From assembly GCA_976551045.1 (NCBI GenBank), contig CDPCPM010000017.1:248001-312000 (forward strand): a DNA stretch of 64,000 nucleotides, in the 5' to 3' direction. Below are positions 4,152-57,993 of the stretch, piece after piece (the stretch's first letter is position 1; each line of letters begins with the position of its first letter). Made by a program: the position numbers and the translations under genes. Below the pieces are notes generated by a model. The model searched no databases and was not told the DNA's origin. It saw only the letters and a list, made by a program, of their open reading frames with translations. This DNA comes from Glaucostegus cemiculus (taxonomy: Eukaryota).

Positions 4152-4428
4152 TGAAAATCAGAACACTGCAGATTCTGAAAATCAGAAATTAAAACAGAAA
4201 CTGCTGGAATGTTCAGGTCAGGCAGCATCTGTGGAAAGAGCACAGTTAACATTTCAGGTCCCCGATCCTTCTTCAGAAATGGGAAAGAGAGAAAAAAGGT
4301 TGGTTTCCAGTAGCACAGAAGGTGGGGGCAGGATGGGTAGAACAAAGGGGATATCTTGACAGGGAGAGTACAAATGAGTTAATGTAGCAGTTAGAATAGC
4401 AGCTAGGATCAGATTATGTTTTTTTTAT
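4152..4428 (-). mobile_element. Penelope-like element 3' terminal-repeat fragment with 12-bp TSD
   Basis: Matches the end of the GIY-YIG-bearing copy at 29550-29760; flanked by ACCTGGAGGAAA at 4140-4151 and 4429-4440. Confidence 0.8.
4243..4281 (-). ncRNA. Minimal type-I hammerhead ribozyme motif (Penelope-associated)
   Basis: Minus strand reads CATTT-CTGAAGA-aggatcggggacct-GAAA-TG-TT-AACTG: intact CUGANGA and GAAA, stem II agg/cct, stem I with one mismatch, loop III ATGT (probable CpG decay of ACGT). Confidence 0.6.
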
Positions 4429-5392
4429 ACCTGGAGGAAACCCACATTGTCACAGGGAAAACATGCAAATTCCACACAGACATCAGGATTGAACGTGACT
4501 GCTGTGAGGCAACAGCTCCACCTTTATATCCCTCTTTCATGAGACCAAGCTCTGGATCTCAAGCTCATGTGCTTAAGGCATTTAACATTGGCTGTGTTTA
4601 ATCTACAGCCATGCTTTATCACATTAGTCTGTGCATCGAGGCTGTAAAGACATGGGTATGTTTGTCACATCATCTCATTGGAGTAAAAGCAAGAATGATA
4701 ATGCCTTTCAGGAGCCAATCCACCCATCTCTCTCATCTTCTAGTATAAATCCTTCATTTTTGATCAAAATGACAGAACAAACACCTGGTTGAAGAATGGA
4801 AATACCTTGTTGCCCCCACTTTTGAAGCAAACTTTAAAAACAAGTACTTGTGGCATGGTCTTTATCAGTGAGGTCATGTTTCAAAATAGATACTAATAAC
4901 AGCACTCCGAAAACTGTCCCCACCCTTTCAATTTTAGATGCACACCACAGGACCAGCTAACATCACCATTGTACTTTTATGCCCACTAATTTTACACGTA
5001 TATGAGTATCCAACCAATAGATCAATGGGATTCTCACAGATTTTTGCATTAGATCTTCTGGCCTAATTCTTTTCCTGATCTTCTCAACATTTATGTAAAT
5101 AGCTGTCCTCACAGAGAGCAACATTTACATTCAGTTGGACCTTAACATTTGTGAATGAGCCTGGAGTCAAACATAACTGAGGGCAAGATTGTGCTCCCTC
5201 TCGATATTTTTTTACATAAATACAAGGATTCAATGTGCAGTTAACAAATGGAATATGACAGTTACAGAACAACAGCACCAAAGCATCTACACTTCATCAC
5301 AAGCTTGTGCAAAAATAGCAATCATCCTATCAGGGCGATCACAAGGGATTATTTGTATAGGAATTGGAAGGGATCACACTATTACCGATTTT

Positions 5393-5680
5393 AGATATCT
5401 TTATTAGTCACATATACATTGAAACGTACAGTGAAATGTGTCTTTTGTGTAGTGTGTTCTGGGGTAGCCCGCAAGTGTCACCACATTTCCGGCACCAAAA
5501 TAGCATGCCTACAACTTCCTAACCCGTACGTCTTTGGAATGTGGGAGGAAACCAGAGCACCCAGAGGAAACCCACGCAGACACGGGGAGAATGTACAAAC
5601 TCCTGATAGACAGCAGCTGGAACTGAACCCGGGATGCTAGCACTGTAATAGTGTTACACTAACCGCTACACTACCTTGCC
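5393..5680 (-). mobile_element. tRNA-derived V-SINE, young family (tail ...catgtgactaataaaga)
   Basis: Head (ggtagtgtagcggttag...gggttcagttcc), V-domain GGGTTTCCTCTGGGTGCTCTGGTTTCCTCCCACATTCCAAAGACG; similar copies at 19049, 22485, 24997, 46539, 49062 and 52317. Confidence 0.9.
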
Positions 5681-6589
5681 TGATCACCTTCACATTAAAG
5701 TAAGTGAATGAAGCAAGCCTCATCCGTACCTGTTCATTTTACACCTGCCTGACCCACACCCTGCAGAAAAAGATCAAAATCCTGATTAACGAAGCCTTTG
5801 TGTGAATTCTGAAAGGCTTGGTACCAGTCTCCTCTCTCTAATAAGTTGATGGATACGGAGTTCAGAGAATCAAAGAATGTTACCAAGACAGAAAGCCATC
5901 TTATCTTATCTTATGCAGACATGCTGGCTCTCTGCAGCAGCGAAGCAGCCACTCGCCAACCCTGCCCCTGCAGACACAAAGTTCTGCAGATGCTGGAATC
6001 TGGAGAGGTGGCAAACCTCTTCAAAAATCGGCATACCTTGAAGATGCAGGATTTTGACCTGAAATGTCGACAATTCTCTTCCCCCTGCACAGCTCCTCCA
6101 GTAGATTGCCTCTTACCTTGTAGCCCTGTATTTAGGACTAGGATGGATACAATGGAATAACTGGCCTCCTCCTGCCCTGTACATTTCTGAGAGTCTGAGT
6201 AAGTTCCAATGGCACTGAAGTTACCGATCTACCACAATGCTATCAATTTAGAAAAGTGACACACAAGATATTGCATCTATCAGACATAATAATTCAGCCT
6301 CCTTGGGTCAGCCTAAATTTGCTATCACCTGTTTAGTTTGGACTTTAAATGCCACACTCTGGTCTGCTCATGCACATGCAACAACAGGCTTTTTGAACGT
6401 AGGTGTGGTATGTTAAAACTAAGTCAAAACCGAGGGCTAAACGTTGAGTGCATTTGTGCCTATTTTTATGGGTAAACTGCATATAAAATACATTGAAATT
6501 TCAATTCACACCATAATACTTGCCTCCCAGCTAACAGTAATTGATTCTGGTTTTTAAGATTATGCTATGGACTGCATAAAGTACTGTTT

Positions 6590-7260
6590 TATAAGTCCAG
6601 CTCGTTTATTGCCTCTCACCGCTGAGCCACAGTATCAACACAATCCAACTACTTTCCATTGGAAGTCACGTCCATCACGAAAGTGGACCTGGAAGTTCTG
6701 GGCATGATTCACCCTGGTGCATGTGTCATTTTGCCCAGTGCCATTCACCCGAGTGATGATATCATCAATGTGTCCAATGCTCATTTCAGCGTTACAAATA
6801 ACAATGCAACCTACTACCTGTGTTTTCCACTCACAATAAAACAAATGACATACTCTTCAACAGCAGCTAAATTGCTCCTGCTGGGGCATTGATATTTTGC
6901 TTGTTGCTTGTGTTGGCCTGACTGATAACTGTCATGTTTGTATTGGCAATTGTTTCTCTGTTGTTCCAAACTGAGAGCCTGCGCCTTGCAATCTGTGGGA
7001 ATGATCGCTGGAAAGCAGTGGGGGGAAAGAGTGGGGTACAGATACTTAAAAAAAAATGTGTCCCACTATCACCCTCAGCCACCACCCATTCTTCCTCACC
7101 ACCATGGCAGCATTATGCAGCACACAATTGTTGCCACAGAGAGCCTTAATGCAATAACTCACTGCCCAGCAGTCTGTTCAGAATGGCACTGCAAGCTGTT
7201 TACAGATACCACCAGGAAATGCACAAGATCATTCAAATAAAGGAACAAAAAGGTGCAAAC
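6590..7260 (-). mobile_element. Degraded PIF/Harbinger transposase fossil
   Basis: Minus-strand fragments in HARBI1-like order: FLYLNDLVH, Q*VIALRLSVAT (cf. QVLIALRFYATG), INAPAG, VICNAEMSI...RVNGTGQND (cf. VICDA.M.I..V.ARWPGS.HD). Confidence 0.45.
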
Positions 7261-11456: not shown

Positions 11457-12245
11457 CTGGTCCCTCTGAATGCACGGTAGCGATGTCCTGCGGTGGGGCT
11501 TGGAGCCCAGTTGACTGTTAGGCATCTCGGCGGCAATGACCGAACTGGATCTCCTCCTTCGCTTGATGACAGGGACTTTGTCCTCGGCGGTGGCCGGCGG
11601 CGCTCCCTGGGGCAAGATGCGCACAGCGTACCTGGCCAGCATCACTCCCAAAATACCCATCAGGTAAGCCAGGAAGGGTCTCCAGCTGGCCCGCACCCGC
11701 TCCAGGGACAGCAGCGACACGGTCCTCAGCAGGCTGGTGAAGAGGATGGTGCACACGCCCTGGCTCACCCGCAAGACCATGAGGGTAGCGGCGGCCAGGC
11801 AGCTCAGCAGCACCACGGTAGCGCCGAACGACAGCAGCTGCTCCTCGCCCACCAGCAGCGCCTGCAGCAGGGTCTCGGCCAGCGAGCAGGCGGCCAGCAG
11901 CCGGGGGGCGAGCTCGCCCCTGCCGCAGCCCGTCAGGTAGAGCGCCAGCCAGAAGAAAGCGCTCATCAGGCTGAAGAGGGGCAGCGCGGAGTGCAGCAGG
12001 GTCAGCAGCTCGCCACCCAGCCAGCGCAGCAGTGCGCCCAGCACCACCGACAGCGAGGCGACCCCGGCGGCCGACGACAGCAGGCGCCCGCTGCCCGCCA
12101 GCCCGGCCCACGCCGCCGGGCAGCCCGGGTCGCGGCGCAGCGGGCTCGCACAGCCCCGCACGTAACCATTGCGCTCTCCCCCTCCCCTGTCGGGCTCGGC
12201 GCTCACTTTACTCCGGGGCGAAGCGGGCTGCAGCCGTGATGCCAT
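11457..12245 (-). CDS. PDE3A: cGMP-inhibited 3',5'-cyclic phosphodiesterase 3A, first coding exon (N-terminal membrane-association region and phospho-motifs)
   Basis: ATG at 12245-12243 in strong Kozak context (A at -3, G at +4). Translation matches recalled human PDE3A exon-1 blocks: LFSLMSAFFWLALYL, RTVSLLSLERVRASWRPFLAYLMGILGVMLARY, KRRRRSSSVIAAEM, HRRTSLPCIQRDQ. Ends at CAG|GTAAGG (intron starts 11456, phase 0), where similarity to PDE3A exon 1 also ends; the ORF-track extension to 11361 is intronic read-through. Confidence 0.92.
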
Positions 12246-13130
12246 CGTCTCCTCTTAGTGTGTTGGTAGAAAGTTTTTTTTTCCCTTCCCCCCCCCCTCC
12301 CTCCTCCACCCCTTCCTCTATTGAAGACTTGGTCAAACAAACAGCTCTCTCTCTCTCTCTCTCTCTCTCCACACACACACACACACACACACAAAGTTCC
12401 GAGGTGGGCTGCCTCAAGGGGTGGGTGAGGGGAGTGTGGAGGATGCTTGGCCACTTTGGTGGCGGAACACCGCCACCTCCTCACCCCACCTCCCTCCCGT
12501 CCCCTCCCCTCCCTCACACCGCCTCTCTAACCCCTGGGCGTGCAGCCGGCCCGCCGCTCGCTCCTGGCACCAAAGCTCCCGAACGACATGACACCGGGAG
12601 GCGACTGACAAGCCGGGTCTCCTTGGCGCTGGCCGATCTAGGCCGTGCTGAGCATTGCGAGCGGCTCCCCTCTCCTCCCCTCTCCTCTCCCCCTTCACTC
12701 CTTGCCCCATGCGGAATACACGAGGAGAGGCGCCGATCCCTTCATCCTCTCCCGTTGGACCACTGCCTCCCTAGCTCCCCTTCCTCTCTCTCTTTATTAT
12801 CTCTTCCACTCTCTCACTCTTCCACTCTCTCTCTTTCTCTCTCTCACTCCTTCCACACTCTCCCTCTCTCTCCTGCTCCGGAAAGACCAGCGATGCCAAA
12901 CGAGGTAACACCGAGCAGGGCTTTCAGGCTCCAGCTCAGGAGAGCGTTAACATGCTGGCGTTCATTTCGTACAGGGCGACGCAGTCGGCAGCGGAGGGCA
13001 GATTGAGCCGGGTCCCCCAGCTTCAGAGCGCCAGCGGCCGCGCCAGCCTCTTCGCTGCTGACCACCTGTATAAACTCCACAGTCCTCCCACCCCCAGTAC
13101 TGCCACCCCACAGTACGGTCTGTCACCGAG
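11480..13130. promoter_or_regulatory. CpG island covering PDE3A exon 1, 5' UTR and probable promoter
   Basis: Abrupt rise in GC and CpG density against a CpG-depleted background, with long polypyrimidine/polypurine tracts upstream of the ATG. The TSS cannot be placed from sequence. Confidence 0.8.
12345..12393. repeat. Compound microsatellite (CT)12-C-(CA)12
   Basis: Read directly; 100-150 nt upstream of the PDE3A ATG. Confidence 0.95.
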
Positions 13131-13369
13131 AGGAAGAGATGCTGTTTCTCATTATTGATCAGGATGGTGTCGTGTGTGCGGTCAGCTGTTTGTCTGAAAA
13201 CTTCTTGTGTTAACAGGGCCCTTTTCGCTCAGGTGTTGAGGGCAGATGTCCCAGTCTTCGGACATTTGGTCCTTCTAAAAGGACCATGTTTTGTTGTCGC
13301 AAGTATCAGCAGCAAGTCCAAAGTGTTGCTGTCCGAAAAGCAAACCAAGTGCAACAATTTTTATTTTAA

Positions 13370-16300
13370 GAAGTGCGACTGCTGATACAAGGCAGGAAAC
13401 AAGCAGCAGGGCGGGCAGCATCTGTGGGGAGAGAAACAATGAGCCGACGATTGCGAAAATGAAGAGGAGGGTGCGAGGTGGGGGACTGGTGGGTGGGAGA
13501 GAGATGGAGTCTGGGGAAAGCAGATGGGAAGGACATTTGCAGGCGTATTAGAACGCAAAAGTTGTTGGAAGTTTTTGACCATTGATGAAAAATATTTTCT
13601 TGCAGCGCTGAACGCCGAGAGGGATGTTGAAATGATGCAACAGGACAACTTTGAGATGGCCGAAGTCACTGCTGTTGCAGGGAGAGGTCAAGCAGTGCAT
13701 GTGCCAATGCATGGACCAGTTGTGCCTTGCATCTGCATTTCACCAGTTTGCCCCACAAATGGCAGACATAACGTCTGTGTGTTTGCATAACGGCTACAAG
13801 CTAAATCCACAGCAGATGTCCAGGCTTCACCAAAATTAAAAGCAGAAGATGATGGAAATCTGAAACATAAATCAGAAAATACTGGAAATGCTCATCAGTT
13901 CAACAGCATCTGTGGAGAGAAAAGACATTGGATTTAATGTTACAGGCTGGTGACCTTTCATCAAAACTGGCCAATTCTGACAAAAACTGGAAAGGCTGGT
14001 TAACTGAAATTGTTGGATTTGATATTGAGTCCTCAGGACTGTAACATGCCTAATGGGAAGATGAGATGCTGTTCCTCAATCTTGTGGTGTGTTTCATTGG
14101 AACTGTTGGGGAACAGAGTTCGGAATGGGAGAAAGATTTAAAGTTGATTGGCACCTGGATGCTTAGGGTTGCCGTTGCGATTGAACGAAGGTGTTCTGCA
14201 AAGCAGTCGTCCAATCTGCGTTTGGTTTCTGCAATGAAGATGAGACCACATTGCGAACACCAAATACAGTATACTAGATTGTGAGTACAAGTGAAGTCAC
14301 CCGATGGTTGGTTCTGCGGATGGTGGAAAGGGACGAGGTAAATGAGAAGAGGTAGAGGTGAAGGTATTGCAGTTCAGAGTCAAGATATGGCAGAGAAACA
14401 GGCCCTCCAGCCTAATGAATCCACACCAATGATCAGCCACTCATTTGCACAAATACTATATTAATTGCATTTTTTTTAATGCTCCCCACATTATCATCAA
14501 CTTCCTTCAGATGCCACCACTCACCTACACACTGGGGGCAACTTGCAAAGGCCAATTCCCCTACTGACCTAGACGTCTTTGGGATGTGGGAGGAAACTGT
14601 CGCACCCAGAGGGAGAGTGTGAAAACTCCACACATTATAGTACTGGAGGTCAGTATTGAACCTAGGTCTCTGGTGCTGTGTGGTAACAGCTCTGCCAGCT
14701 GTGCCACTGTGCCATCGGTTGTATGGGAAGGTGTGTGAGAAGGGACTTGGGTGCTGGTGGAGACGAGGAAGTGAACCCGGGTGCTTTAGAGGGAATGGTT
14801 CCCTTGGAGCGATGAAAGGGGAGGGAAGAGGAAGATTTGGCTGTTGGTGACACCCCATTGAAGGTCGTGGAAATTTCAGAGGTGGGAGGTGAGTTCAAGG
14901 GGAATCCTAGCTCAGAGAGTGGGAAGAGAGGGTTTGAGAGTGGAAGCGGGGGGATGAAATGGATGTAATTGAGAACCATTATGGAGAGAAATGATGGTTA
15001 AGGAAAAATGAAGGCATCTCAGAAGCACTAGTGACATTATCATCAAAACAGACACGATGGAGGTGGAGAAATGAGGAAGAGTGGAGTTAAAGGAGATGAT
15101 GTACAATAGAATGGAGTCGTCACTGAAAGCAGGATAGGAGGTGGTGTAGTCAAGATAGCTATGGGAGTCTGAGAGCTTATAATGCACATTGTCCACTGGC
15201 CTCTCCCCTAAGATGGGGATGGAGAAATTGAGAAAGAGTCTGAAATGGTCCATGTGAAATTGAGAGCAGGGTGGAAATTGACGGCAAAGGTGATGAAAAC
15301 TGAGTTCTGTACAAGTGCAGGAAGCAGCAATAATTCTCAATATACCAGAAAAAGAGATGAGGAATGGGGCGGGAAACAAGGACTATTCCACGTACTCACT
15401 ATGAGACAGGCATAGCTTGGACCCATTCAGGTTCCCACGGCTGTATCTTTGCTTCTGAGGAATCGAGTGGAGTTAAAAGAGAAGTTGTTCAATGTGTGAA
15501 CAAGTTAAGCCAGCTTAAGGAGGGTGATGGTGGTGAACAGGGAATGATGGAACCTTGAGATCATTCTTGTGAGGGATAGAGATGTTGAAGAATTGGATGT
15601 CCGTGGTGAAACTAAGAAGGAAACTTCTTAGTTTCTAAGAAGGAACTTAGTTCCTAAGAAGGAACCAAGATGGAAAAAGATGAGTTCAATGGGACAAAAA
15701 CAGCCCTGCCTGTGGATCTTCAGGAGGAGGTAGAAGCAGGTTGTGTAGGACTGAGGGATCTGGAGGCTGGAGGCATGATCTCCAGAGGAACCCAAGACCC
15801 AATGTTCAGAAGTGAGATCATGGTCCAGAGGGAGGTATGAGGTGGTGTCAGAGAGCTGGCACTCAGCCCATTAAGGTAGAGGTCAACTCACCAAACCACA
15901 ACACCACCGCCCTTATCAGCAGGTTTGTTAATACCATTGGGATTGGTCCCTTGTGAGTGGAATGCTGCAAATTCAGAGGTGGGTGAGAGTGAGAGTGAGC
16001 AAAGGCAGTGGATGAACTGATACTGTAAGTATCGCAACAGCAATGACAAATAAATGGATCCACAAAGGCCAAAGGAGGGTCCAGATGGAGTATAAATCTA
16101 AAGAATGGGGATAGGATCCGCAGTTTGGTGTGAAGATGGTCAGAGAGGTGGTCACGGGGTGAAGGCAGAAGAAGAGCTCAACATTAGTGAGCCCCCAATT
16201 TAATGAGATGAACACAGGGATGAGGATGAGGACTGTGTCATTTGTTTGGGATCAGAGCAGAGAAAATCAGAGGGACAGTGAAAACAAGACAAACAAATGA
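13370..16300 (-). mobile_element. Degraded Penelope-like element (RT plus GIY-YIG endonuclease) with tandem terminal repeats
   Basis: Minus-strand NLVYCIWCSQCGLIFIAETKRRLDDCFAEHLRS (GIY-YIG, ~14170-14290) and VHYKLSDSHSYLDYTTSYP (RT thumb, ORF 14912-15379); terminal-repeat copies near 13380-13440 and 13845-13975. Confidence 0.85.
14377..14714 (-). mobile_element. HE1-type V-SINE nested in the Penelope element
   Basis: Head ggcacagtggcacagctggcagagctg, V-domain remnant, CR1-like tail (gagaaacaggccctccagcc on the plus strand). Confidence 0.8.
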
Positions 16301-16700
16301 ACCTGGGGGAGAGGTGAGTTCAGAGAAGAAAGTTCCAGGGGACATTTAGAATTCAAGAATTGTTGCAATTTGCAGTCTTTGATGTCTGAAAGGAAGCTGT
16401 GGTTCGGACAGATTTGTGAGTCAATGATTCCTTTTCTGCCATGTGAATCTCTGATTCTACAACTGTAGCTTTATATGTATACTCCAATGGGCCTGCATTT
16501 GCTTGTGAGCAATTTTAATAAACATTACTAACAATGTACAAAAGAAACTAACCATTACAACCTTCAGAATGGGGGATTTCTTTTTCCAATTGTATTAAGT
16601 GCATCTAATTTTGTAGACAGATGCCATGAGGGCACACGAGTCATGACATGGCATGAAGCGTAGTCAGCACCTCTTCTCCACAACTTGAAACGCGCATTCA

Positions 16701-16738
16701 GGTTCTGATGAGGGTTCATCATCCTGAAACATTAACTG
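16701..16738 (+). ncRNA. Minimal hammerhead motif in a solo Penelope terminal repeat (16700-16775)
   Basis: GGTT-CTGATGA-gggttcatcatcct-GAAA-CA-TT-AACTG, followed by the family signature ttccacagatgctgcctgacctgctgag. Confidence 0.55.
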
Positions 16739-19996: not shown

Positions 19997-21261
19997 TTGT
20001 TTTCTAAGAAGAGCTTAAAAATAGAGGCACTAAAATGGAATTAATTACATTACTTATTTAGATTTGACTTAGGGATTGTTTTTATGTTTATGGATGCACA
20101 TTATCACTGAGAGTCAGGTACTGGAAGTGGAACTTTGGCTCCTTGCTTTAACCTTTAATAATTCAGAAAAAGATAAAACGGGGCAGATGAAATTAAAAGG
20201 CACTCCACTCTGTGTCACCACCAATCATGCTTGACTTAATTCACACACCCTCTGCTGGGCTAATGTGAAATTTCCTCTCAGAGAAGAGAACGTTTTTGGC
20301 CTTTTGGACATGTGCCACTGACCTAATGCCAACTAGTGCCAAATTGAATGTAGTTTTATTGTCTTAAGGCACCCCTGGTTCAGTTCACTGCATACATCTC
20401 TTCAGTTAAAGATCCCAATGCACAGTCCCACTTCCGAAACAAATGGACATCCTCAAAACCAGAGACAAGTAAAACATGGATCCAAACTATAACCTCTCAG
20501 AGACAGCCCGTCATCTTGTCGTTATTTTTGTCCAATGGAAATTGACAGCCACACTTTTGGGATCAAAATAACTCAGAAAATGTGGGTAAATTTGACACCT
20601 ATACTGATCCAAGGTTTGACTAAAGCACTTCACAGATAACTAAGTACTTTTGAAATGGATTTACAATTACATTGTGGGAAATACAGAAACCAGTTTGAGG
20701 ACAGCTAAATTCCAGGCACAGCAGCATGACAATGGCCAGAAAGTCAGCTTTAAGATGTTGCTTGTTATTTCTCCACCAAACATGTTGCCATTCAGAGTAT
20801 AGACAATCCTGTTTCCCACGGCATGACAGAAATCAGGGGGTCTCAGTGGCAATTTAATAGTGTCTGGGATCATATATACTGTATCTGTTGGACCCTTTCC
20901 ATCACAAACACAGGGGAATTTAGTCCAATGGAGAATGATTAGCAGAGTTACAGAGTTGTTTCACCTAGTACAAAACTAGGAATAGAGCCAGTGTCAGACA
21001 ACATTATTCAATCATTCACATATTTTGGTTCTATCTTCATCCTGTCAAGGTTGGGCATCATTTAGACTAGTAGTCAATGTGGTGTCAGGGCAACAGAGTC
21101 AACAGACAACTGAGAAGGGAATAATGTGGCACTATTGTTGCCTTTATCTTGTTTCAGAGGCTTTCATCAGGATCCCCATCGGCCACAGGCATTACTATCC
21201 ACGTAAGCTTTATAGCGCAGGAACTGGCTGTTCAGCCGAACTGTTCTGTGTTTGTGGATCA

Positions 21262-21445
21262 ATGCAGAAGATGCTGGAGGAACTCAGTGGGTCAGGCAGC
21301 ATCCATGAAGGGAAATGGCCTGTTGATGTTTTGTGTCAGGACCCTTTATTAGGACACTTCCACAGATGCTGCCTGACCTGCTGAATTCCTTCAGCATCTT
21401 GAGTGTTGCTCCAGATTCCAATATCTGCACTCTCTTCTATCTCCT
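21262..21445. mobile_element. Fold-back unit made of inverted Penelope terminal repeats
   Basis: aagatgctggaggaactcagtgggtcaggcagcatc pairs with gatgctgcctgacctgctgaattccttcagcatctt. Confidence 0.8.
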
Positions 21446-22765: not shown

Positions 22766-23184
22766 CTATATGTTTCATTCTTCACAACATCTCAAGAATA
22801 TAGATCTAATTTCTATAGATGCTAATGATAGGACAACCCTCTTACCATAGGAATGAGTCTAGAGTATCCCTGTTGTTGGATTGCATGTCCCGGATACTTG
22901 TCCTAATCAGGACCTGTGGAAGTTATTTTTGTAAGTTTTATTTTTGCTCACCTTTTCTTCTTTTGCAGGCAGTTTTGTCCCACTAACAAATTTCTTGGCT
23001 GATAAGATAGAGAATTAAAGCCTTTCAACATTTCCAATAAATGTTCTTTGGGTGAAAGGCCAAATGCAAAGTTTTTATCTTGAGTTGCTGATGAGAGTGA
23101 GCATTTGATAGTGTGATCGTATTCTCACCTCTTGAGTTGGACAGCACTGTGTTTGAACCCTACTCCAGAAAATTCTAATAAACC

Positions 23185-23425
23185 AAAAATGAGCTGCTGG
23201 AGGAAATCAGCAGGTCAGGCAGCATCTGTGGAGGGAAATGGGCTGTTGATGTTTCGGATCGAGACCCTTTACCTGGACAGACTGCACATCTTGCAGTCCA
23301 GTGAAGGGTCTCAACCAGAAATGTCAACTGGCCATTTCCCTCCACAGATGCCGTTGGTCCCAATGAGTTCCTCCAACAGCTTATGTTTTGCTCCAGATTC
23401 CAGCACATGTAGTCTTATGAGTCTC
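23185..23425. mobile_element. Fold-back Penelope-derived unit with one degenerate hammerhead motif on each strand
   Basis: Arms gctgctggaggaaatcagcaggtcaggcagcatctgtggagggaaatgg / ccatttccctccacagatgcc...gagttcctccaacagc; motifs at ~23243-23280 (-) and ~23294-23330 (+). Confidence 0.8.
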
Positions 23426-35952: not shown

Positions 35953-36778
35953 CACGGACCAAGTTAGGGAATTGGAGCAGCAGCTGGATGAACTACGGAG
36001 TATTCGGAAGGCGGAGGCAGAGATAGATCAGAGTTATAGGGAGGTAATCACACCGATAAGACAGGAGGAGGGTAACTGGGTAACTGTCAGGAGAGGGAAG
36101 GGGAGCAGGCAGAGAGAGCAGAGCACCCCTGTGGCTGTCCCCATCAATAATAAGTATACCGCTTTGGATACTGTTGGTGGGGATGACCTACCAGGAACTA
36201 GTTGCGGAGGACCAGTCTCTGGCACCGAGACTGGACCCTCAACGCAGAAGGGGAAGAAGGAAGAGAGGAGGGCGGTAGTGATAGGGGATTCTATAGTCAG
36301 GGGGACGGATGGGAAATTCTGAGGGGAAGATCGGGAATCCCGGATGGAATGTTGCCTCCCAGGTGCCAGGGTCCAGGATATCTCAGATCGGGTTCAGGTG
36401 ATTCTCAGGAGGGAGGGAGTGAACCCAGATGTTGTTATCCATGTAGGGACTAACGACGTGGGCAGGAAAAGAGAGAAGGTCCTGCATAAGGAGTTCAGGG
36501 AGTTAGGTGCTAAATTGAGGAGCAGGATATCCAGGGTAACAATCTCAGGATTGCTACCTGTGCCACATGAGAGTGAGGGGAGGAATAGGAAGATTAGGCA
36601 GATTAATACATGGCTGAGGGGATGGTGCGAGAGGGAGGGCTTCAGGTTTATGGATAATTGGGATTTGTTCCAGGGAAGGTGGGATCTGTTCCAATGGGAC
36701 GGTTTACACCTGAACTGGAGGGGTATAGACATGCTTGCAGGAAGGTTTGCTAGTGCTGCTCGGGGAGATTTAAACTAA
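35953..36778 (+). pseudogene. CR1 ORF1 (coiled coil plus SGNH esterase), one in-frame TGA at 36320-36322
   Basis: ORFs 35972-36322 and 36344-36778 share a frame; SGNH blocks VIGDSIVRG, HVGTND and DGLHLN are present. Confidence 0.9.
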
Positions 36779-36822
36779 ATTTTCAGGGGGAGGGGATCCG
36801 GAATGAGAGAGAGGATAGCAAG

Positions 36823-39700
36823 ATGGAGGGTAGAGGTCAGGTAGGACCTACACAATTTAGGAACATTAATACGAATGGAGAGAGGAGAAATGGGTTAAAA
36901 ATCCTATATCTGAATGCACGGAGTGTCAGAAATAAGGTAGGTGAGCTTGAAGCTCAGATACGAATGGGTAAGTATGATGTTGTTGGGATAACGGAGACAT
37001 GGCTGCAGGGAGATCAGACCTGGGAAATGAATTTTCAAGGGTATACGTGCTATCGTAAGGACAGGAAGGTGGGCAGAGGGGGTGGGGCGGCCCTGTTGGT
37101 GAGGAATGAGATTCAGTCCCTTGCAAGGGGGGACATTGAATCAGGAGAAGTAGAGTCAGTGTGGATAGAACTGAGGAACTGTAAGGGCAAAAAGACCCTA
37201 ATGGGTGTTATCTATAGGCCTCCAAACGGTGGCATGGATATTGGGTGCAAGCTGAATAGTGAGTTAATGTTGGCATGTGGCAAGGGTAATGTCACGGTAG
37301 TTATGGGGGATTTCAATATGCAAGTGGACTGGGAGAATCAGGCTGGTGCTGGACCCCAGGAGAGGGAGTTTATAGAGTGCCTCCGGGATGCATTCTTGGA
37401 GCAGCTGGTACGAGAGCCGACCAGGGAGAAGGCCATTCGGGATTTAGTGCTGTGTAATGAGCAGGATTTGATAAGGGATCTCGAAGTAAAGGAGCCATTG
37501 GGAGGTAGTGACCATAATATGATAAGTTTTTATCTGCAAGTGGAGAGGGGAAAGGGCAAATCAGAAGGGACAGTAGTGCAGTTGAACAAAGGAGACTATG
37601 GAGCCATGAGGGAGGAGCTGGCTAAAGTTGACTGGACGGGCATCCTAGCAGAATTGACGGTGGAACAGCAATGGCAGGTATTTTTGGGAATAATGCACAA
37701 GGTGCAGGATCAGTTCATTCCCCAGAGAAGGAAAGACTCAAAAAGGGGAAAGGGGCCACCGTGGCTGACAAGGGAAGTCAGGGATAGCATAGTGTTAAAA
37801 AGGAAGAAGTATGGCAGAGCTAAGCTGAGTGGGAAGACAGAAGATTGGGAAATTTTTAAGGTGCAGCAGAATTTAACTAAAAAGCTAATTCAGGAAGAAA
37901 AAAATGAGGTACGAAGGCAAGCTAGCTAGGAATATCAAAGAGCATAGCAAAAGCTTTTTTAGGTATGTGAAGGGAAGGAAGCTAGTTAGGAACAATGTTG
38001 GGCCCTTGAAGACTGAATCGGGTGAAATTATTACGGGAAACAGGGAGATGGCAGTCAAATTTAATAAGTACTTTGGATCTGTATTCACTGGGGAAGACGT
38101 AAGAAATCTCCCAGACGTACGGATGGACAAAAGGCAGAGGGTGATGGAGGAAATAAAGTGGATTGACATTAGGAAAGAAATGGTGATGGGTAGACTAATG
38201 GGGCTGAAGGCTGACAAATCCCCAGGTCCGGATGGTCTGCATCCCAGGGTGCTGAAGGAGGTGGCTCTAGAAATTGTGGATGCATTGGTGATCATTTTCC
38301 AATGTTCCATAGATTCTGGGTCAGTTCCTGAGGATTGGAGAGTGGCCAATGTTATCCCACTTTTTAAGAAAGGAGGGAGGGAGAAAACGGGGAACTATCG
38401 TCTGGTTAGCCTGACGTCTGTGGTGGGGAAGATGCTAGAGTCCATTATTAAGGATGAAATAGCGGCATATTTGGATAGCAATGATAGGATTGGGTCGAGT
38501 CAGCATGGATTTACCAAGGGCAAATCGTGCTTGACTAATCTACTGGAGTTTTTTGAGGATGTAACCAGGAAAATAGACGAGGGAGATTTGGTGGATGTTG
38601 TGTACCTCGACTTTCAGAAGGCATTTGATAAAGTGCCGCACAGGAGATTGGTGGGTAAAATGAGGGCTCATGGAATTGGGGGGAGGGTATTAACTTGGGT
38701 AGAAAACTGGTTGGCAGATAGGAAACACAGGGTAGGGGTGAATGGATGTTTCTCGGAATGGCAGGCCGTGACTAGTGGGGTGCTGCAGGGCTCAGTGCTG
38801 GGACCGCAGCTGTTTACGATCTATGTTAATGATTTAGAGGAAGGCATTGAGAATAACATTAGCAAGTTCGCTGATGATACAAAGTTGGGTGGCAGGGTGA
38901 CATGTGTAGAGGAAGTTAGGAAGATTCAAGGTGACTTGGATAGGTTGGGTGAGTGGGCAGATACTTGGCAGATGAAGTTTAATGTGGATAAGTGTGAGGT
39001 TATCCACTTTGGGAGCAGGAACAGGAAGGCAGATTATTATCTGAATGGTGTGGAGTTAGGTAAAGGGGAGGTACAAAGGGATCTAGGAGTCCTTGTTCAT
39101 CAGTCGCTGAAAGTGAATGAGCAAGTGCAGCAGGCGGTGATGAAGGCTAATGGAATGTTGGCCTGTATTACGAGGGGAATTGAGTACAAGAGCAAAGAGA
39201 TTCTTTTGCATTTGTACAGGGCCCTGGTGAGACCGCTTCTGGAATATTGTGTACAGTTTTGGTCTCCGGGGTTAAGGAAGGATGCCCTGGCTATAGAGGG
39301 CGTGCAGTGTAGGTTTACGAGGTTAATTCCAGGGATGTCAGGACTGTCAGAGAAGTTGGATAGACTGGGATTGTACACGCTGGAATTGAGAAGATTGAGA
39401 GGGGATTTGATTGAAACATATAAGATTGTTAAGGGATTGGACAAGATAGAGACAGGAAATATGTTCCAGATGTTGGGGAAGTCCAGGACCAGAGGGCATG
39501 ATTTAAGAATAAGGGGTAGGCCATGTAGGACAGAGATGAGGAAAAACTTCTTCTCCCAGAGGGTTGTGAGTTTGTGGAACGCACTGCCTCAGAGGGCAGT
39601 GGAGGCCAATTCTCTGGGCACTTTCAAGAGGGAGCTAGATAGGTTTCTTATAGATAGGGGAATCAAGGGATATGGGGACAAGGCAGGAACGGGATATTGA
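36823..39700 (+). pseudogene. CR1 ORF2 (APE endonuclease plus reverse transcriptase) with one +1 frameshift
   Basis: APE motifs YLNARS, GITETWL, YRPPN, MGDFN, SDH; RT motifs KSPGPDG, QHGF, LDFQKAFD, QGSVLGP, KFADDTK. The two ORFs join if the A7 run at 37898-37904 is A6. Confidence 0.93.
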
Positions 39701-41330: not shown

Positions 41331-41334
41331 CAAT

Positions 41335-43640
41335 CTACAAATGTTGGAAATCTAAAATAAAATCAGAAAAAGCTAAAAACACTTAGTAGATCAGGCAGCA
41401 ACTGTGGAGAGAGAAACAGAGTTGTCATTTCCAGTTGAAAACCTTTCATCAGTGGAAAAATGGGAAACCGAGTCAGTTCCAAATTGCAGAGAGAGTGGGG
41501 GAGCAGTGGATGGGACAAAGGGAACATCTTGGGTAGGATGAGGCCAGGGTTGCCATGGTGATTTGCTGTTTATGAAATTGCCTGCTGATAGGTTAATGAG
41601 GTTGGGGGGANNNNNNNNNNNNNNNNNNNNNNNNNNNNNNNNNNNNNNNNNNNNNNNNNNNNNNNNNNNNNNNNNNNNNNNNNNNNNNNNNNNNNNNNNN
41701 NNNNNNNNNNNNNNNNNNNNNNNNNNNNNNNNNNNNNNNNNNNNNNNNNNNNNNNNNNNNNNNNNNNNNNNNNNNNNNNNNNNNNNNNNNNNNNNNNNNN
41801 NNNNNNNNNNNNNNNNNNNNNNNNNNNNNNNNNNNNNNNNNNNNNNNNNNNNNNNNNNNNNNNNNNNNNNNNNNNNNNNNNNNNNNNNNNNNNNNNNNNN
41901 NNNNNNNNNNNNNNNNNNNNNNNNNNNNNNNNNNNNNNNNNNNNNNNNNNNNNNNNNNNNNNNNNNNNNNNNNNNNNNNNNNNNNNNNNNNNNNNNNNNN
42001 NNNNNNNNNNNNNNNNNNNNNNNNNNNNNNNNNNNNNNNNNNNNNNNNNNNNNNNNNNNNNNNNNNNNNNNNNNNNNNNNNNNNNNNNNNNNNNCATAGA
42101 CACTGTGAAATAGAGGCTGAGATATTGCTGAGACCAAAAGGAGAATGCCCAGCAGGTCAGGCAGTGATGATGGAGAGAGAAAAACTGTTATTATTACAAA
42201 TGGAAAACCTTACAGAAGAACTGACCAGTTCAGATACAGAGAAAACAAGGTGCCTGAAATTGTTGAATTTATCATCGAGTTCCAAAGGCTGCAATGTTCC
42301 CTGCCTCCTGTAAAGTCTCTATTCTAGTCTCCCAGCTACTCTAACTCTGTATTACTTACTCTGATGAGGTTTTCCATTCAGGTGTCTGTGAGATGTCTCC
42401 CTTCTTGCTGATCCATGGCTTCCCCTCTACCATAGTAGGCAGAGCAATCAACTGTATCTTACTTACTTCCTGTACATCTCCTCTCTTTCCCGATAAAGCA
42501 AGGATAAACTCTGGTCCTCATTTTCCACCTCACCAGACTTTGCATGCACAGGCCATCCTTTGCGATTTCAACCACCTTCAACGAGATTCCACAGCTAGTC
42601 TCCCTCCCCTCCACTTTCAGTATTCCAAACGATGCACAACTTCCTGGATCCCACCAACTATCGCCTGTTGCTTTCCAATGAAACTGCAGGAAATGCAATG
42701 CCTGTCCTTTTGCCTTTTCCCATCCAAGGAGTCAAACAGTCCTTCACAGTGAAGCAGCAACTCCCTTGCAGATCTTCCAGCCCAGTGTACCACATTTGGC
42801 GTGCACCACATGGTCTCCCCTACACTTGAGAAAGCAAACACAGATTGGGTGACAGCTTTGTGGACTTCAGTCCTTTGGAGTGACCTTGAGATCCAGATGT
42901 CTGTTACTTTAATTCTCCATCCCACTCCAAGTCTGACCTATCCTGGTTTCCTGCACTGTTACGATGACGCAAATTTGAGCAACAACATGTCATCCACTAT
43001 CTCGGCAGATTGCAGTTTTGTATTCAACAACTTTCAGTGACCTGAATGAAAAACGCAATGATGCTGGAGGAACTCAGCAGGCCAGGCAGGACCTTCTTCA
43101 GGTTCTGACCCGAAACAATGAACGCCTGCTTTTCTCCACAGACGCTGCCTGACCTGCTGAGTTCCTCCAGCATCGTCATGTTTTTCATCTAGATTCCAGC
43201 ATCTGCAGTCCTTTGTTTCTCTAATTTTCAGCGATCTGCTTTCTCTGCTTGAATCAGAACTGACTGGTTTTGCTGTAAGGTTTTCCATCTGTAAATATTA
43301 GCTTTTCTCTCTCGCCAGACACCGCCTGACCTGCTGGGCATTTCCACCATTCTCTTTTTTGGTTTCAGGTTTCAGCAGCAGCTCTCCCCTGCATTTGACA
43401 CGTCCCTCGGTTTACTTTCGCTCTCCCTCTAACTACCCCAATTAGTTATCAACCAAGCAGCTTCATAAACAGCATATCACCATGGCAACCCTGGTCTCAC
43501 CCCATCAGAAATATTCCCTCCACCCTGTCCATCCCTCCACCACTCGCTCTCTGCAACTTCAAATTCATCTTCTCACTTCAAACTGGAAGATTTATCTCCC
43601 TACAGATGTGGGCTGACCTGTTAAGTATTTTCAGTTATTA
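41335..43640. mobile_element. About 2.3 kb Penelope fold-back (minus-strand left arm; plus-strand ORF remnant and right arm) with nested hairpin unit 43047-43222
   Basis: 41520-41600 is inverted to 43435-43510 and 42125-42270 is inverted to 43222-43370; GIY-YIG remnant at 42720-43030 (QGVKQSFTVKQQLPCRSSSPVYHIW). Confidence 0.8.
41611..42094. other. Assembly gap (484 N)
   Basis: Run of N. Confidence 0.97.
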
Positions 43641-46132
43641 TAACAGAAGCTTCTGCTTTGACTTAACACGAAGTTTCACACTCTCCCCTCCCTTCTGGCC
43701 TTAGTAAACCGAAGTTCAGCTCTCTTCCCTGTTTTTAACCATGTCAACAATTTAATAAAATTTGTAATGTTATAAATTCATAACTTTAATTTGCATTCTA
43801 AAATTTTTAAACAGTTTTAGTCACTACAATGGGGCAGTCTTTATATTATTAATATTTCAAGTACAAAGTCAGTTCAAGGGAGTTGAACATTCACAGTAAC
43901 ATTTATATGAGCTCTTGTTTTCTGTTATAGAGTCATAGAGTAATACAGCACAGAAATAGGCCCTTTGGCCCAATTGTTGTTCAAACAAGCTAGCCTCTCA
44001 CTGTGTGAGAACTAATAACTCCTCATGTCAGTGTTAGGATACAAGGAGACTCTGTTTTACCACAGCGTTTTCAATCTGGAGATGTGCAGACCAGAGCTGC
44101 AGCATTCATGAATCACAGGTGATTAGGCACATCTGTATGTCTCTCTCTCTCTGTTCTGATTCTCTCTGCTCTGTTTCTTAGCTCTGTTATACTGTTCTCA
44201 CAACTTCAGCACTCAAAGCACCCTGAGAAAGCACACTTTGGGTCAATTTCTGGAACTGTGGGTCACAAACTCATTCTTCTTGTACAGCTGCCCATACAAC
44301 CTGTTAATTTAGATGCAGTTAGTCTTGTTACAATACTTAATTATACTGTTTCGTTAACAGTAGGGAAATCTTGCAACATTTAATCTAATCTTTATTGTTG
44401 TTTGCTCTATAAACCCAAACCTTAGACAGAAGGATGGTAAAGATAAGCAGATTATGCCCCTTATTCCAAGCAATTATGGGATATATTTATTTTTCTCTTG
44501 AAGGAAAATAACATTTACTTACTTTGCATCGTCTCTGAATGCAACACCTCATAAATATCATTTCACTGGAGATGTGTAAAATCTATTTCTGCAGATCAGC
44601 CCACTTTTCCTTTGTAAAAGCATTCACCAGTGTCGTGGTCTTGCAGAAGGAATGAAGGAACACAAGAAAACGGGAGCAGGAGTTGGACACTTGGCCCCTC
44701 ACACCTACCCCACCATTCAATATGGCAGTTCTACACCAGGCCTCAACTTCTATACCATTTGCCATGTTTAAAAAATGTTTCCTTATCTTGCTTCTGATTC
44801 TTTTGCCAATAATCTTAAACCTGTTTCCTTGTGCCACCAACCTGATTCCCAGTTAAAATGGTTTCTGGCCACCACTCCATTAACACGGTTGTGAGAATGT
44901 CTGTTTATCCTCTGGGTCTCCCAACCTCTCCAAGTGACTGGGAAAATTCCAGCTGATCTTCAGAGATTTGGTGCCACGAACTGTACACGATACTCCAACC
45001 AGTGCTTTGGAAGTGTTTGATATTGCCATACGTTACTCTTTACAGGGAAAGAAGCAGGTAGAATCCTGGGAAGGTATTCTGCACTAGGCTGGATAAAATC
45101 TTGCCAGCTATGGCTGACCATCCAACCAGGGTTTAGCTATTGAAACTTGGGAGTCCAGGGCTTCCTGACAAGGCAAACATGTCCAAAATGATGTCCAGTA
45201 TTGCCAAAATTTCCCTGTATTGCACATGGAATTGCCCACCACGACCTTGCTGTCCATTCACCCTGCTGTACAGCATGAGACTCCACTGAGTTCCATGGGT
45301 ATCATGGGCAGGGGTGTACAAGTTGCGATGGTGTACCAGTAAGTAAATGGCAAACACACCCAATACAAAATGATGTAAAACAACACTGTTGGTGATATGA
45401 CTGTACTGGTAAGAAATTTAAGGTAGTTTATTCCCTGATTGTGGGGCAAAGACTCAGGAAACAAAAGGAGACGGTAAGATACTTTTTTTTAAAATTATAT
45501 TTCTTTACTTTAATATTTTTAATTGAACAAATGTGTCTCAAGAGCCAGATTGTGCTGGACATTTGCCAATCCACTCTCAGCTTCCTCATGGCCTCTGTGC
45601 TGTGGCTGTTCAGGGAGGTTGGGTAGGCTGCAAGCAGCGACTAGCCCTCGGCACTGGAAACTGAGGCCCCGCCCACAGACCACCCCGACAGAACGTCTGA
45701 CAGCTTGTGCATCGAAAACTTTCCCTCTGGTTCCAACTTCAATGATCAGAAACATTTTGAAACAAAGTGGGATTTAAAAAAATTTACAACATAAAAATAT
45801 TGACAAGAAATAAAACTACTGAAAAGCACATAAGTTAAAATTAATATTAATTAAAAGAGTAACAACTTTCACTTGATTTCACTTATCACTGCAGTGAGGG
45901 TTGGCAACATCAGTCTAATGAAGGGGTCTGTGCTGGATGTGTCATTCGAGGCTGATGTAAAGCTGAAGACCTCGATGCAGAGTGTATCCAATCACTTGGG
46001 CCAGTAAGTTACGGAACCACAGCTGGATTCAGTGCCGAATCCTCAGCAAAGCAGGAGGCCAGGTGTGCAGGAGTGGAAATTCAGAACACACTGACTCAGC
46101 CTTCTCCGCTAGTCTGTGCTCCTCCAGGGCAA

Positions 46133-46470
46133 CAAACAATCTGCTGGAGGAACTCATCTGTGGGAGGAAAGGAACCGTCAATGTTGCAGGTCAAAACCCT
46201 GCATTACAACTCTGAGGAAGGACATGTGGTTATAGCAGCAAGTCTTGGTAAGAATGTGGTCTAAGAGCCAGAGAGCAATTGAAACCACATAGGGGGTGGG
46301 AATCGGTGAGAGATGATCTCTCAGAACCCCTGGGAGTCCTAATGCAGGGTTTCCATCTGAAACGTCAACAATTCCTTTCCCCCCCAACAGATGCTGCTCA
46401 ACCCGCTGAGTTCCTCCAGCAGATTGTTTGATGATCCGGACTGTAGCATCTCCAAACTTCCATGTCTCCC
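46133..46470. mobile_element. Fold-back Penelope-derived unit with a spacer
   Basis: caaacaatctgctggaggaactca / tgagttcctccagcagattgtttg; degenerate hammerhead with intact GAAACGTC near 46335-46372. Confidence 0.8.
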
Positions 46471-48529: not shown

Positions 48530-50405
48530 AAAAAACTGCAGATGCTGGAAATCTGCAATTATAACAGAAAACTGTGGAAATACTCAGCAGGTTAGGCAGT
48601 GTCTACGGGAAGAGAGAAGGAGCTAATGTTTCAGAATGAAGACCCTTCTTTGGAACTGGGAAGGTGAGAAAGCATATTAGCTTTAGGGTACAGTGAGAGT
48701 GAGGGGAGGGATGATTAAGACAAATGAAATATGTGTGATAGGACAAAACCAGGGTTGGTGAGGTGAGCCTGTTTTTTCCCACAGAACCGTTTGGTTAATG
48801 GATTATTGATGGTAGAATAGTGGAAGAGAAACCAAAATGAAATGTTGAAACTGAAATGCAAGGGTGAGCTGTTACTTAGACCTGAAACAAAAGGAGAATG
48901 CTGGAAATGGCCAACAAATCAGGCAGCACCTGTGGAGAGAGAGTAAAACAGTTCACATTACAGGTGGACGACTTTACACCAGAACAGGCCAATTCTGAAA
49001 TAAACATGAAAAGCAAGTTTTCTGAAACTGATGAATTTGATATAAAGTCTCATTAACGATAGATAAGATATGATCTGATAAAATATTATTTATTAGTCAC
49101 ATGTGCATCGAAACTCACAGTGAAATGCGTCTTTTTGAGTTACTGAGAACGTGCCGGGAGCAGCCTACAAGTGTCGCCACGTTTCCGGTGCCAGCATAGC
49201 ATGGCCACAGCTCCTAAACTGTGCATCTTTGGAACGTGGGAGGAAACAGGAGCATCCGGAGGAAACCCACGCAGACACAAGGAGAACGTACAAATTCTTT
49301 ACAGACAGCGGCGAGAATTGAACCTGGGTCCCTGGCGCTGTAATAGCGTTACAATAGATTGAATTAATACCTCATTAATTCATCCTACAAGAGAAACTTC
49401 CTTTGTTCTACCCATTGTCCTTCCCCACCTTCTCTGCTACCAAGGCTAAATTGTCTACTCTCTTTCTCAGCATTGATGAGGGGTCTCAGACTTCAAACAT
49501 TAACTGTTTCTCTTTCCACCACTCCTCTTTGACCTGCTTTTTTACCCAGCATTTTCTGTTTCTATTTCAGATTTCCAGCACTGCTGATTTTATTTTTGAT
49601 TTTTATCATTTGTTTCAGGTGTTAATCACTGGACACTTAAACATATAATCTGTTCCATTGTTCCAAGGAGAACCAATGTAAATTCAAGGAACAGCACCTC
49701 ATTTTCCATCTGGATACATTGGTAATGTCATATGGACTGTGTAATGTTGTATAGTCTGGCCAACCAAGACATACCCAAAAGAAGGGAAAAAGGCAACATG
49801 GGATGGCAGGCAAAAATGGCCAGTCTTGATACAAACAGAAAGAAAGAGCGAATTATCTAAAGTTGGTGAATTCGATGTAGCGTCCTGCAGGCTGCGACAT
49901 GCCCAGATGAAAGATGAGGTGTTGTTCCTCAAGCTTAGCTTTTACGAGAATACACAACATTAGCAACATAGTACACAGACAAAGCAGCGTAATCTAATCT
50001 TATTGGGCCCTTAACTACCTCATTAGGCCATGCAGTTTTACCCTATCAGAGACATTCCCTGTGATCATTCCCCCACTTCTCTTCTACAGACAACTAACTT
50101 GTTTTCCTCTGCTTGAGGAACTCAGCAGGTCAGGCAACATCAATGGAGGGAAATGGATAGTCAATGTTTCAGGTCACGATCCTTCACCCGTCCAGATGAA
50201 GGGTCTCGATCCAACTGTACTTCTCTCCATAAATGAAACCTGACCCATTGAGTTCCTCCAGCACTTTGTGTGTTGCTCTAGATTCCAACAGCTGCGGTCT
50301 CTTATGTTTCTGTCTTTGTTTTTCTGTTTCTCAGTTTTGATGAATGCCCCTGGATCTGAACCACTAACTCAGTTCCTCTTTCTGCAGATTCTGCCTGACC
50401 TGCGA
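48530..50405. mobile_element. Cluster of Penelope terminal repeats and ORF ends in both orientations, with V-SINE at 49062-49353
   Basis: Tandem terminal repeats at 48530-48660 and 48880-48990 (-); plus-strand copies at 49400-49610 and 50320-50402; EQHLIFHLDTL-type GIY-YIG C-terminus near 49690; hairpin unit 50110-50310. Confidence 0.75.
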
Positions 50406-54720: not shown

Positions 54721-55139
54721 CTGCAGGTTTTTGATTTTCATTCACTGTGATAGATTCTGTTAAGAAGCAACATTAAGAAATATAGTGCAAAGACCATGAC
54801 CAAGCTGAATTGAAAGGCTTAAAATGGTTTATTGTTATCAAGCCAGGGAAAATAAAAACAAATCATAGTAAGGTCTGATCTTGAATTCAATAAGTGTAGA
54901 CATCTGTGAACTGATTATGGTAAAAATCCAAACAGATTAATTAACGTACTTTTCCGGAAGAGACCAGCATCCCTGCCAAGGCTTGGCTTCAACTGAACTC
55001 CTTTAGTGTTTTTTTGGGACAACATGGAATGAGCAATAAATTTGGCCTTGATAATGTCACTCACACCACAAGGACATACATTTTGAAAATTTGTTGGTCA
55101 AATCAAAAAAAATGCGAGGAAAGAATACATTGGATCAGT

Positions 55140-55660: not shown

Positions 55661-56294
55661 CAATGTCTACCAAGTCCACATTCGCCATAAAAATTCGAGT
55701 AACAATTTGCTGCCAACGTTATTTAAAGCCCAGTGCTATCTTGTATAAATAGTTTGATATCAGCAAACTGTCAGTGAGTAAATTCAGTTGGAGGAATATC
55801 TTTTAGTCCATTCTCACTTTACCTCTATAAGTTAACTGCACTGTATGGTAATGCCTCAACAGTAGACTTCACTGAACATTAATCTTAATTCATGTTAATT
55901 TTGAAACAATCATATTGATTACAAATTCCTTTTCTGCACAAAGTGGTATTTTGCAATCTTGCATTTTTTTAAAAAAAGCTTTCAACATAAACTAAGCTGA
56001 GTTATGAAGTATTTAACAGACACCAAGAACAGCATATTTTCATTCCACTTTCTATTTCCAATCGTTTTTATTGGGTTAATTGTAGCAGACAGGAAATAAG
56101 CGAGAACAACTATTCAACAAATATGCCTCAAGATTAATTGCTTGTGAATGTCTGAATATGTATCGGCCCTGTGGGGCTCAAAATAAAACTAGTACTTTAA
56201 CTAGACTATACAGGCAAAGAACAGTTTTGATTGAAAGAACACATTGTGGTGCACTCTCAGACCATCATATTTATCTTTAGTAAGATTATGTGTT

Positions 56295-56345
56295 CATTTA
56301 TCTCCACAAGAAGAATTTTCAAAATTCTTTTTGTGGAGATAAATG
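56295..56345. repeat. 51-bp near-perfect palindrome
   Basis: catttatctccacaagaagaatttt-c-aaaattctttttgtggagataaatg: 25-bp arms, 1-nt spacer, one mismatch. Confidence 0.95.
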
Positions 56346-57599
56346 TTTTAAAAGTTTACTTTTAATAATGATTGATGCCTGGCTAATGGTAGATTACAGC
56401 ATTCTTGTACAATAATATGCGAAGAGAGCTGTTCTTAAAGACTCCAGTTTTAGCAGTTACAAGAACAGCTTTATTGTGCAACATCTTTTTAATTCTCCCC
56501 TGCTTTACATCTACACCAAAAGAAAATGATCTGGGTACATATTTTCTTGAGTTGTGATACTTGTTTAATAGCATGACTTGAGTTTGAGAGAACTGAAATC
56601 TCTCTCATAAGTAACAGCTTAGATTTGGAATGCCCCTCTGTTTGATTATCAAGTGCCAACAATCATTAACCACTTCACAAGGGTTTTATTATATTTGAAA
56701 TTTTTCTATTAGAGCACAGCTTTGTAGGGGCAGTTCACAGGTAGTTCAACATTAAAGGTGGGTCACGAAAAGCATGAACATTTTCAAAAAGGACAAATCA
56801 TTAAGCAGCCTCAGGTCTTCAGTCAGAATAAAGAGGCCTTGAGGAACATACTTCAGTTCAATAGGATTGGGATGTAAATAAATGAATTAAGACCATCTTG
56901 AATGTATTTCCTGAAGCAATATCTGATGAAATGGCTCTGCATCAGATCTATCAAAGCACCTCATTAAAAAATAAAATCACTGGAATCCAAATAAGAATAC
57001 AAAGACTCACCCAGGAATGCCCATTTGAGCAAGATACTGGGGAGGGAGACAGGGACAGTGTCCCAGTGCCTTCACAAAATGAGGACCATATCTGTAAAAG
57101 TGCAATGTCAAGCAATAAATTTATCTTAAATCCAAATCTCTTGTAAATGAGTTAAGAGGAAAAAAAAGTACTGAAGTAGTATACCAAGCAGGAGATTGGC
57201 TGATGCATGTTGGGTGCACGCCTTTCACTCCAGAAGCTGGGTTGAAATCCAATCCCAGTTGCTGGAGAGAAAAGGGAGATAGTCTTTCCATCTGCTGCTG
57301 TTGGCTCACCCCACTGAAACAAGCTTCTGAAACCTCAATGCATTCTACATCAGTCATGGCCTCGCTACATAAAACTGTCTATCATGTGGCGATGAGTCCA
57401 CAAGTTGACTGGGAAAGGGATCGGGAGCAGTTATCTTAGTGCAGTTAAAGATGCTCCCCTGACCTTGAGATGGGACACATTGCAAGGTAGCATAAACACA
57501 AGGTGCTTGAAAAGAAAACTATTTGATTCCTCTTATCAGGGAGGGGGGGCGGGGGGGGGTCTAAGGAGTCATGCTGTGTACTTTGTGCTAACTGATTGG

Positions 57600-57993
57600 G
57601 TCCCCTCCCTCAACTGTTCCCATCTGCCCACCCCACCTGCCTTATTTGGTTCCATGCTCCACCTTCCTTTCTGATTAGATTCCATCATCTGTAGCTCTTG
57701 TTGCCTCCACCCATCACCCCCCAGCCTCTAATGCTATTTCCACTCTTCCCTCTGCCATCTCCCCATCAGCCCTCCTCACATGGATCCAACTATCATTTGC
57801 CAGCCCTTGCTCCACCCTTCCCCCTCACCTCCTTTACTTGCTGTCTCCCCTCTGTCTTTCAGTCCAGCTGAAGGCTCGCAACACGAAACGTCGACTGTCT
57901 GTTTCCCTCCACAGATGCCGCCTGACCCATCGAGTTCCCTCAGCTTCTTGTGTGTGCTCCAGATCCCAGCATCTGCCGCCTCTTGTGTCTCCA
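57600..57993 (+). mobile_element. Penelope 3' UTR and terminal repeat with hammerhead motif at 57860-57897
   Basis: CAGTC-CAGCTGA-aggctcgcaacac-GAAA-CG-TC-GACTG (perfect stem I, ACGT loop III, GUC site, mutated core), then the family tail ccagatcccagcatctgccgcctcttgtgtctcc. Confidence 0.75.

Follow-up and report, generated by a model that had tools for sequence, protein, structure and literature searches.

Decayed minimal hammerhead motifs in the probable terminal repeat of an abundant Penelope-like retrotransposon of the ray Glaucostegus cemiculus

One short repeat recurs throughout a 64,000-nucleotide stretch of Glaucostegus cemiculus DNA (assembly GCA_976551045.1, contig CDPCPM010000017.1, positions 248,001 to 312,000). 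We call this whole stretch the window and count coordinates within it unless a contig or locus is named. A first-pass annotation had assigned the repeat to a Penelope element and had seen a minimal hammerhead ribozyme in it. What PLE (Penelope-like element) hammerheads do is still an open question, and we asked what this repeat is, whether its motif could still work and what the motif might be for. The repeat is very probably the 5'-truncated end of the Penelope terminal repeat (pLTR) of an abundant retrotransposon with a reverse transcriptase (RT) and a GIY-YIG-like endonuclease. It carries a known minimal type I hammerhead, and the window copies are decayed and likely inactive. Such minimal hammerheads have been known from PLE pLTRs since 2014; the present case is one in a ray.

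We searched the window with a repeat profile made from its own copies and used the reversed window as control. The profile found one repeat 31 times in the window and not once in the control. Both hammerhead boxes could be recognised in about 17 of the 31 by per-copy alignment, so the annotated figure of more than a dozen copies holds. The complete invariant core (CUGANGA, GAAA, U16.1 and H17) was retained in only two of the 31, 4243-4281 on the minus strand and 16700-16738 on the plus strand, which supports the earlier view that most copies are probably dead. Five copies had been put forward as the best ribozymes; their coordinates were right to within 1-2 nt, but as ribozymes they fared worse, the core being whole in only two of the five. 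None of these five folded better than its own shuffles (z -0.44 to +0.70). A scan with Rfam gave no hammerhead family match at E values up to 5, and the Rfam matches obtained were hairpin artefacts from inverted pairs.

The 4243-4281 motif belongs to an old subfamily (D, with AACT in stem I) and has a U-C mismatch in stem I, a stem II of 3 bp and a C at 15.2 decayed to T. It sits in a 5'-truncated PLE end of 277 nt (4152-4428, minus strand) that was inserted into another dispersed repeat; its target-site duplication, 12 bp long and perfect, lies at 4140-4151 and 4429-4440. A quick scan of eight other window copies or pairs found no such duplication. The 16700-16738 motif, also of subfamily D, has a broken palindrome (ACAU) and lacks the extra A after A9. 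The remaining three are decayed: 41419-41457 (minus strand) has U16.1A and has lost stem I; 46334-46371 (plus strand), of the A9C subfamily (C), also has G5A and stands head-to-head with a copy at 46129-46212 (minus strand); and 57860-57897 (plus strand), of the U4A subfamily (E), also has A6C and has lost stem II. This last copy is preceded by a pyrimidine-rich stretch resembling the upstream part of the pLTR.

Exact-pattern searches were then extended to the 2.85-Gb genome, where every control returned zero matches. The motif was matched exactly 551 times for families A and B and 500 times for the AACT family D, and the core variants 247 times (CUGAUGC, family C) and 108 times (CAGAUGA, family E). 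One 35-nt tail pattern alone had 7,703 exact matches. The majority sequences of families A, B and D contain the CUGANGA and GAAA boxes, U16.1 and H17, whereas those of C (A9C) and E (U4A) do not. Majority motifs of A, B and D have no helix III, an ACGU palindrome, an extra A after A9 and a G10.1-C11.1 pair. The annotated type I layout is thereby supported, and it fits the minimal hammerhead as set out in the available sections of PMC4209133. Among 50 full-motif genome copies the invariant core was whole in 18, of which only four also keep ACGU.

Decay of the palindrome followed the expected course of CpG loss: at positions 15.2/16.2 of 129 copies we counted CG 44, CA 45, TG 31, TA 4 and other 5, as the first-pass annotation had anticipated. 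The same process also strikes G12, which is A in 15 of 50 copies. The proposed pairing-preserving swap in stem I (C-G to U-A) was likewise recovered. Of 30 copies chosen only by their AACT 3' strand, with no condition set on the 5' strand, 24 carried T at 2.1, and the association was also present in unselected copies (4/7 versus 2/81, Fisher p 2e-4). This covariation is one subfamily-level event. Besides the compensatory pair 2.1-1.1, we observed a series G-C, G-U, A-U at 10.1-11.1, and 76% of cells in helices I and II were paired, compared with 15-43% in slid controls. Alignment-wide covariation was not convincing: the score was reached by 22 of 500 shuffles, with relatedness uncorrected, and by 69-376 of 500 for other measures. 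The cut site was noted to lie within a 6-nt palindrome (positions 16.2-1.3; GTCGAC in family A, GTTAAC in D), through which predicted dimers pair.

The Penelope origin was supported by coding remains. An RT-endonuclease protein (P0124) gave colinear matches in most of 20 loci, every copy found being broken, and at several loci the endonuclease-like open reading frames (ORFs) stop about 330-460 nt upstream of the motif. RT passed the Pfam cutoff in one of five ORFs scanned (RVT_1, E 5.8e-7), and the GIY-YIG match was weak and below the cutoff (E 0.022). Among 40 loci we found no full-length ORF that was intact. At one locus (L138) a complete pLTR-ORF-pLTR unit was found, with a 678-nt direct repeat and hammerheads 3.1 kb apart; two further loci (L155 and L071) have the same pLTR-to-body junction. 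The tail is optional and was found on 50 of 90 copies. Within the window, a degenerate PLE body at 13847-15531 (minus strand) holds an RT remnant (15531-15403), an endonuclease remnant (14307-14122) and a hammerhead-bearing end (13969-13847); both remnants lie upstream of the 13931 repeat copy on the same strand. A CX4CxxC linker precedes the endonuclease at 3 of 10 decayed loci, which suggests an element of the Neptune/Nematis type.

Three side observations concern the same elements. In several copies (among them L013:1506-1640) an ATG within the core opens a frame of about 21 codons. Downstream (3') of the motif, a second pyrimidine tract with YAG/ATG opens a frame that runs through the tail. 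On another contig (G000:C172:650040-1417943), about 18 similar PLE endonuclease fragments lie on one strand, mostly 30-55 kb apart; this series suggests a large tandem segmental array.

The core changes U4A and A9C are inherited subfamily traits. The tail alone assigned 75% of 110 copies to their own core family (25% by permutation, with 0 of 2000 permutations as high). Of 16 family C copies chosen by tail only, 10 had C at position 9, 5 had T, 1 had G and none had A. A C-type copy (L144) and an E-type copy (L177) each have a coding body upstream. In family C the adjoining extra A might stand in for A9. Our literature search on shark and elasmobranch Penelope hammerheads and on the U4A variant, which left most subscription journals and the repeat databases outside, found nothing on this family or these core variants.

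To see where insertions begin, we took 90 copies chosen by tail match only, 36 of which extend upstream and 54 of which are short, and compared the short ones with simulated uniform truncation. Half of these (27/54) begin at the edge of helix I, no more than 10 nt 5' of C3, against 9.9 expected (p 1.4e-7). Starts at the scissile bond numbered 9/54 against 7.1 expected (p 0.27). Families C and D gave 11/24 (p 0.049) and 10/24 (p 0.027) starts at the helix I edge, with no excess at the cut site (1/24 and 2/24). Pooled over the three samples, 48 of 102 short insertions begin at the 5' edge of helix I and 12 of 102 at the scissile bond. The idea that cleavage sets the 5' ends of insertions is thus unsupported, there being no scissile-bond excess in any of the three families. 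An extra G, possibly cap-derived, precedes AGTY in 11 of 21 cases against a background of 31% (p 0.036), a marginal result that microhomology explains in part. The hot-spot sequence resembles an initiator as well as a 3' splice site. In the simplest reading, the 5' edge of helix I is likely an RNA start or a copying stop.

In the predicted fold of a young monomer the core is buried in a GAUG/CGUC helix. Predicted monomer folds with the core hidden in this helix were noted for L030:1501-1538, L157:1500-1537 and the L100 motif, and the helix is retained in the two core-variant subfamilies. For a young copy the ideal double hammerhead was calculated at -19.9 kcal/mol, and the preferred dimer was a different fold at -33.7. 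The corresponding value for the 4243 copy was +17.8 kcal/mol, and this copy is not predicted to fold (probability of the stem I pairs about 0). We also inspected three raw RNA runs from a related organism. Reads covered the repeat abundantly on both strands, with no pile-up of read ends at the cut site in these runs, a weak test since the reads mix many old copies. In earlier work, monomers of minimal hammerheads were inactive and their dimers or multimers weak (PMC4209133), natural variants of the core as a rule cleave slowly or not at all, though some are tolerated (PMC3088659), and the hammerhead of the anole Poseidon element cleaves only with the element's protein, its core mutants still inserting in vitro and no RNA-seq ends falling at the site (PMC11167929).

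The 4243 copy had been placed sense in intron 1 of PDE3A. The first coding exon of this gene was found at 11457-12245 (minus strand; 97% identical to sawfish PDE3A, splice donor at 11456) and exon 2 at C17:66844-66785, giving an intron 1 of about 193 kb. From these positions the copy indeed lies sense in intron 1. The first exon and its upstream region (11457-13200, minus strand) are GC-rich. Repeat copies in the intron are evenly divided, 27 sense and 27 antisense, with no strand bias, and nothing points to any importance of the place that the 4243 copy has in the intron.

What, then, might the motif do? While the element was active, a tandem transcript would have carried two motifs 3.1 kb apart, and these could have formed a double hammerhead by ACGU/ACGU pairing, probably only with the aid of the element's protein. 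The spread of the element would likely not need the cut. Insertion would begin by reverse transcription at the tail and would often stop at the 5' edge of helix I. We tentatively propose that the Penelope hammerhead may serve as a structural or start-site signal and not as scissors: the U4A and A9C subfamilies would have spread with their own bodies, insertions would end at helix I with its initiator-like YCAGTY, and the element's RNA would begin with the ribozyme. Several points weigh against the overall reading, that of likely inactive window copies and a cut likely not needed for spread. Three of the five subfamilies have retained the core, and the change in stem I was compensatory; this implies that the fold, and possibly catalysis, was under selection. 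Nearest-neighbour energies leave out tertiary contacts and protein help. In RNA runs from a related organism with many old copies mixed, a small cleaved fraction would escape. Families C and D gave only marginal replicate results, from 6 long templates each, and motif-bearing copies in PDE3A intron 1 number 22 sense against 15 antisense, a small sample. Part of the same evidence speaks for the model put forward in PMC4209133 and implied by the first-pass annotation, in which the consensus ribozyme works efficiently as a dimer and its cut sets the transposition template, a unit-length or circular RNA. The canonical core in the 551 and 500 exact genome matches, the L138 ORF flanked by two motifs and the compensatory stem I change all suit it. 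We regard it as doubtful all the same, given the lack of a scissile-bond excess of starts in three families, the amplification of the U4A and A9C subfamilies, the absence of a cut-site pile-up in the three RNA runs and, in the part of PMC11167929 at hand, normal insertion of anole core mutants in vitro with no RNA-seq ends at the site. The genome holds copies by the thousand, along with two or more altered-core subfamilies that were successful, a supply that makes the need for cleavage in Penelope transposition in vivo, and the start of the template RNA, directly testable.

The hot spot at helix I can also be read as a splice signal. The polypyrimidine-CAG would then act as a 3' splice site, like the one in Drosophila virilis Penelope, and splicing would toggle the ribozyme between two forms. 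A YAG follows a pyrimidine tract at the stem I start in 26/26 long A copies (fixed by the search pattern), 9/11 D, 2/3 C and 13/13 E copies (AG fixed by the pattern), and the 5' end of helix I is where the D. virilis intron stops, according to the sections of PMC4209133 and PMC2377424 available. Against this, the three RNA runs contained no GT..AG joint to CAG; the loose ends among those listed, at 1501-1503 and 1506, were mostly mixed upstream sequence, with none at 1504, the expected exon start; one listed loose end recurred in a non-RNA contig set; and the short genomic copies have no upstream exon in common. We therefore find splicing questionable as the explanation. That the short copies form a separate non-autonomous family, retrozyme or SINE-like (short interspersed element), with its own fixed start at the hammerhead, is unlikely. 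Many copies of about 130 nt do begin at helix I, and retrozymes derive from pLTRs (bioRxiv 10.64898/2026.07.22.740005, available part), but the copies are dispersed rather than tandem, their starts form a continuum in which 36 of 90 reach further upstream, and RT-endonuclease bodies carry the same tails. Finally, co-option of the 4243 copy as a ribozyme that cuts PDE3A pre-mRNA and so tunes expression appears highly improbable. The copy is sense in intron 1 with every invariant core base kept, its AUGU can self-pair by wobble, and one further sense copy in the intron meets the strict core pattern. Its stem I mismatch, stem II of just 3 bp and lack of a predicted fold stand against a working ribozyme, no intact partner lies nearby, the 54 intron copies have no strand bias, and two whole cores among 31 copies are within what decay allows.

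The ray motif and its element can be set beside known systems, as far as the available sections of the papers go. The ray motif shares with the minimal hammerheads of Cervera and De la Pena 2014 (PMC4209133) the missing helix III, a palindromic 15.2-16.2, the extra nucleotide after A9, G10.1-C11.1 and a 5-bp helix I, as well as a genome with several consensus families, a majority of single truncated copies and some close opposite-strand pairs. The hosts named there are bony fishes, coelacanth, frog and reptiles, the present host being a ray; those sections mention neither subfamilies with U4A or A9C fixed nor a hot spot of starts at helix I. With Poseidon of Anolis carolinensis (Frangieh et al. 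2024, PMC11167929) the ray element shares a pLTR hammerhead near the ORF start and an optional tail of 30-40 nt, and the missing read ends at the Poseidon cleavage site are matched by the missing pile-up on the ray repeat in the related-organism runs. The Poseidon hammerhead was assayed (protein-assisted, dispensable for insertion in vitro), whereas any activity of the ray motif is putative; the CX4CxxC linker, which points to the Neptune/Nematis type, would set the ray family apart from Poseidon.

Partial tandems, an inverted pLTR, a tail and a target-site duplication are common to the ray element and the endonuclease-containing (EN+) PLEs described in the accessible parts of PMC3846280 and PMC8557442, while the ray copy number, judged from the tail pattern with 7,703 exact matches, lies far above those descriptions. 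Type I hammerheads derived from pLTRs are also shared with non-LTR retrozymes, a survey of which reports one positive chondrichthyan genome in its available text (bioRxiv 10.64898/2026.07.22.740005). Retrozymes are tandem non-coding units, each with an intact motif; the window copies are dispersed or inverted, mostly broken and linked to RT-endonuclease remnants, and we did not place them among the retrozymes.

The window contains five head-to-head inverted pairs of pLTR ends, and in four of them at least one arm begins at helix I. In the pair at 23180-23409 both arms do so. Two further pairs lie at 21256-21427 and 50109-50294, the motif is truncated in the pair at 43040-43205, and the pair at 46129-46451 includes the 46334 motif. 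Elsewhere in the window, at about 35900-39700 on the plus strand, lies an element with long open frames that resembles a long interspersed nuclear element (LINE), presumably CR1-like, with an endonuclease-like frame at 36754-37926 and an RT-like frame of 603 aa at 37889-39697.

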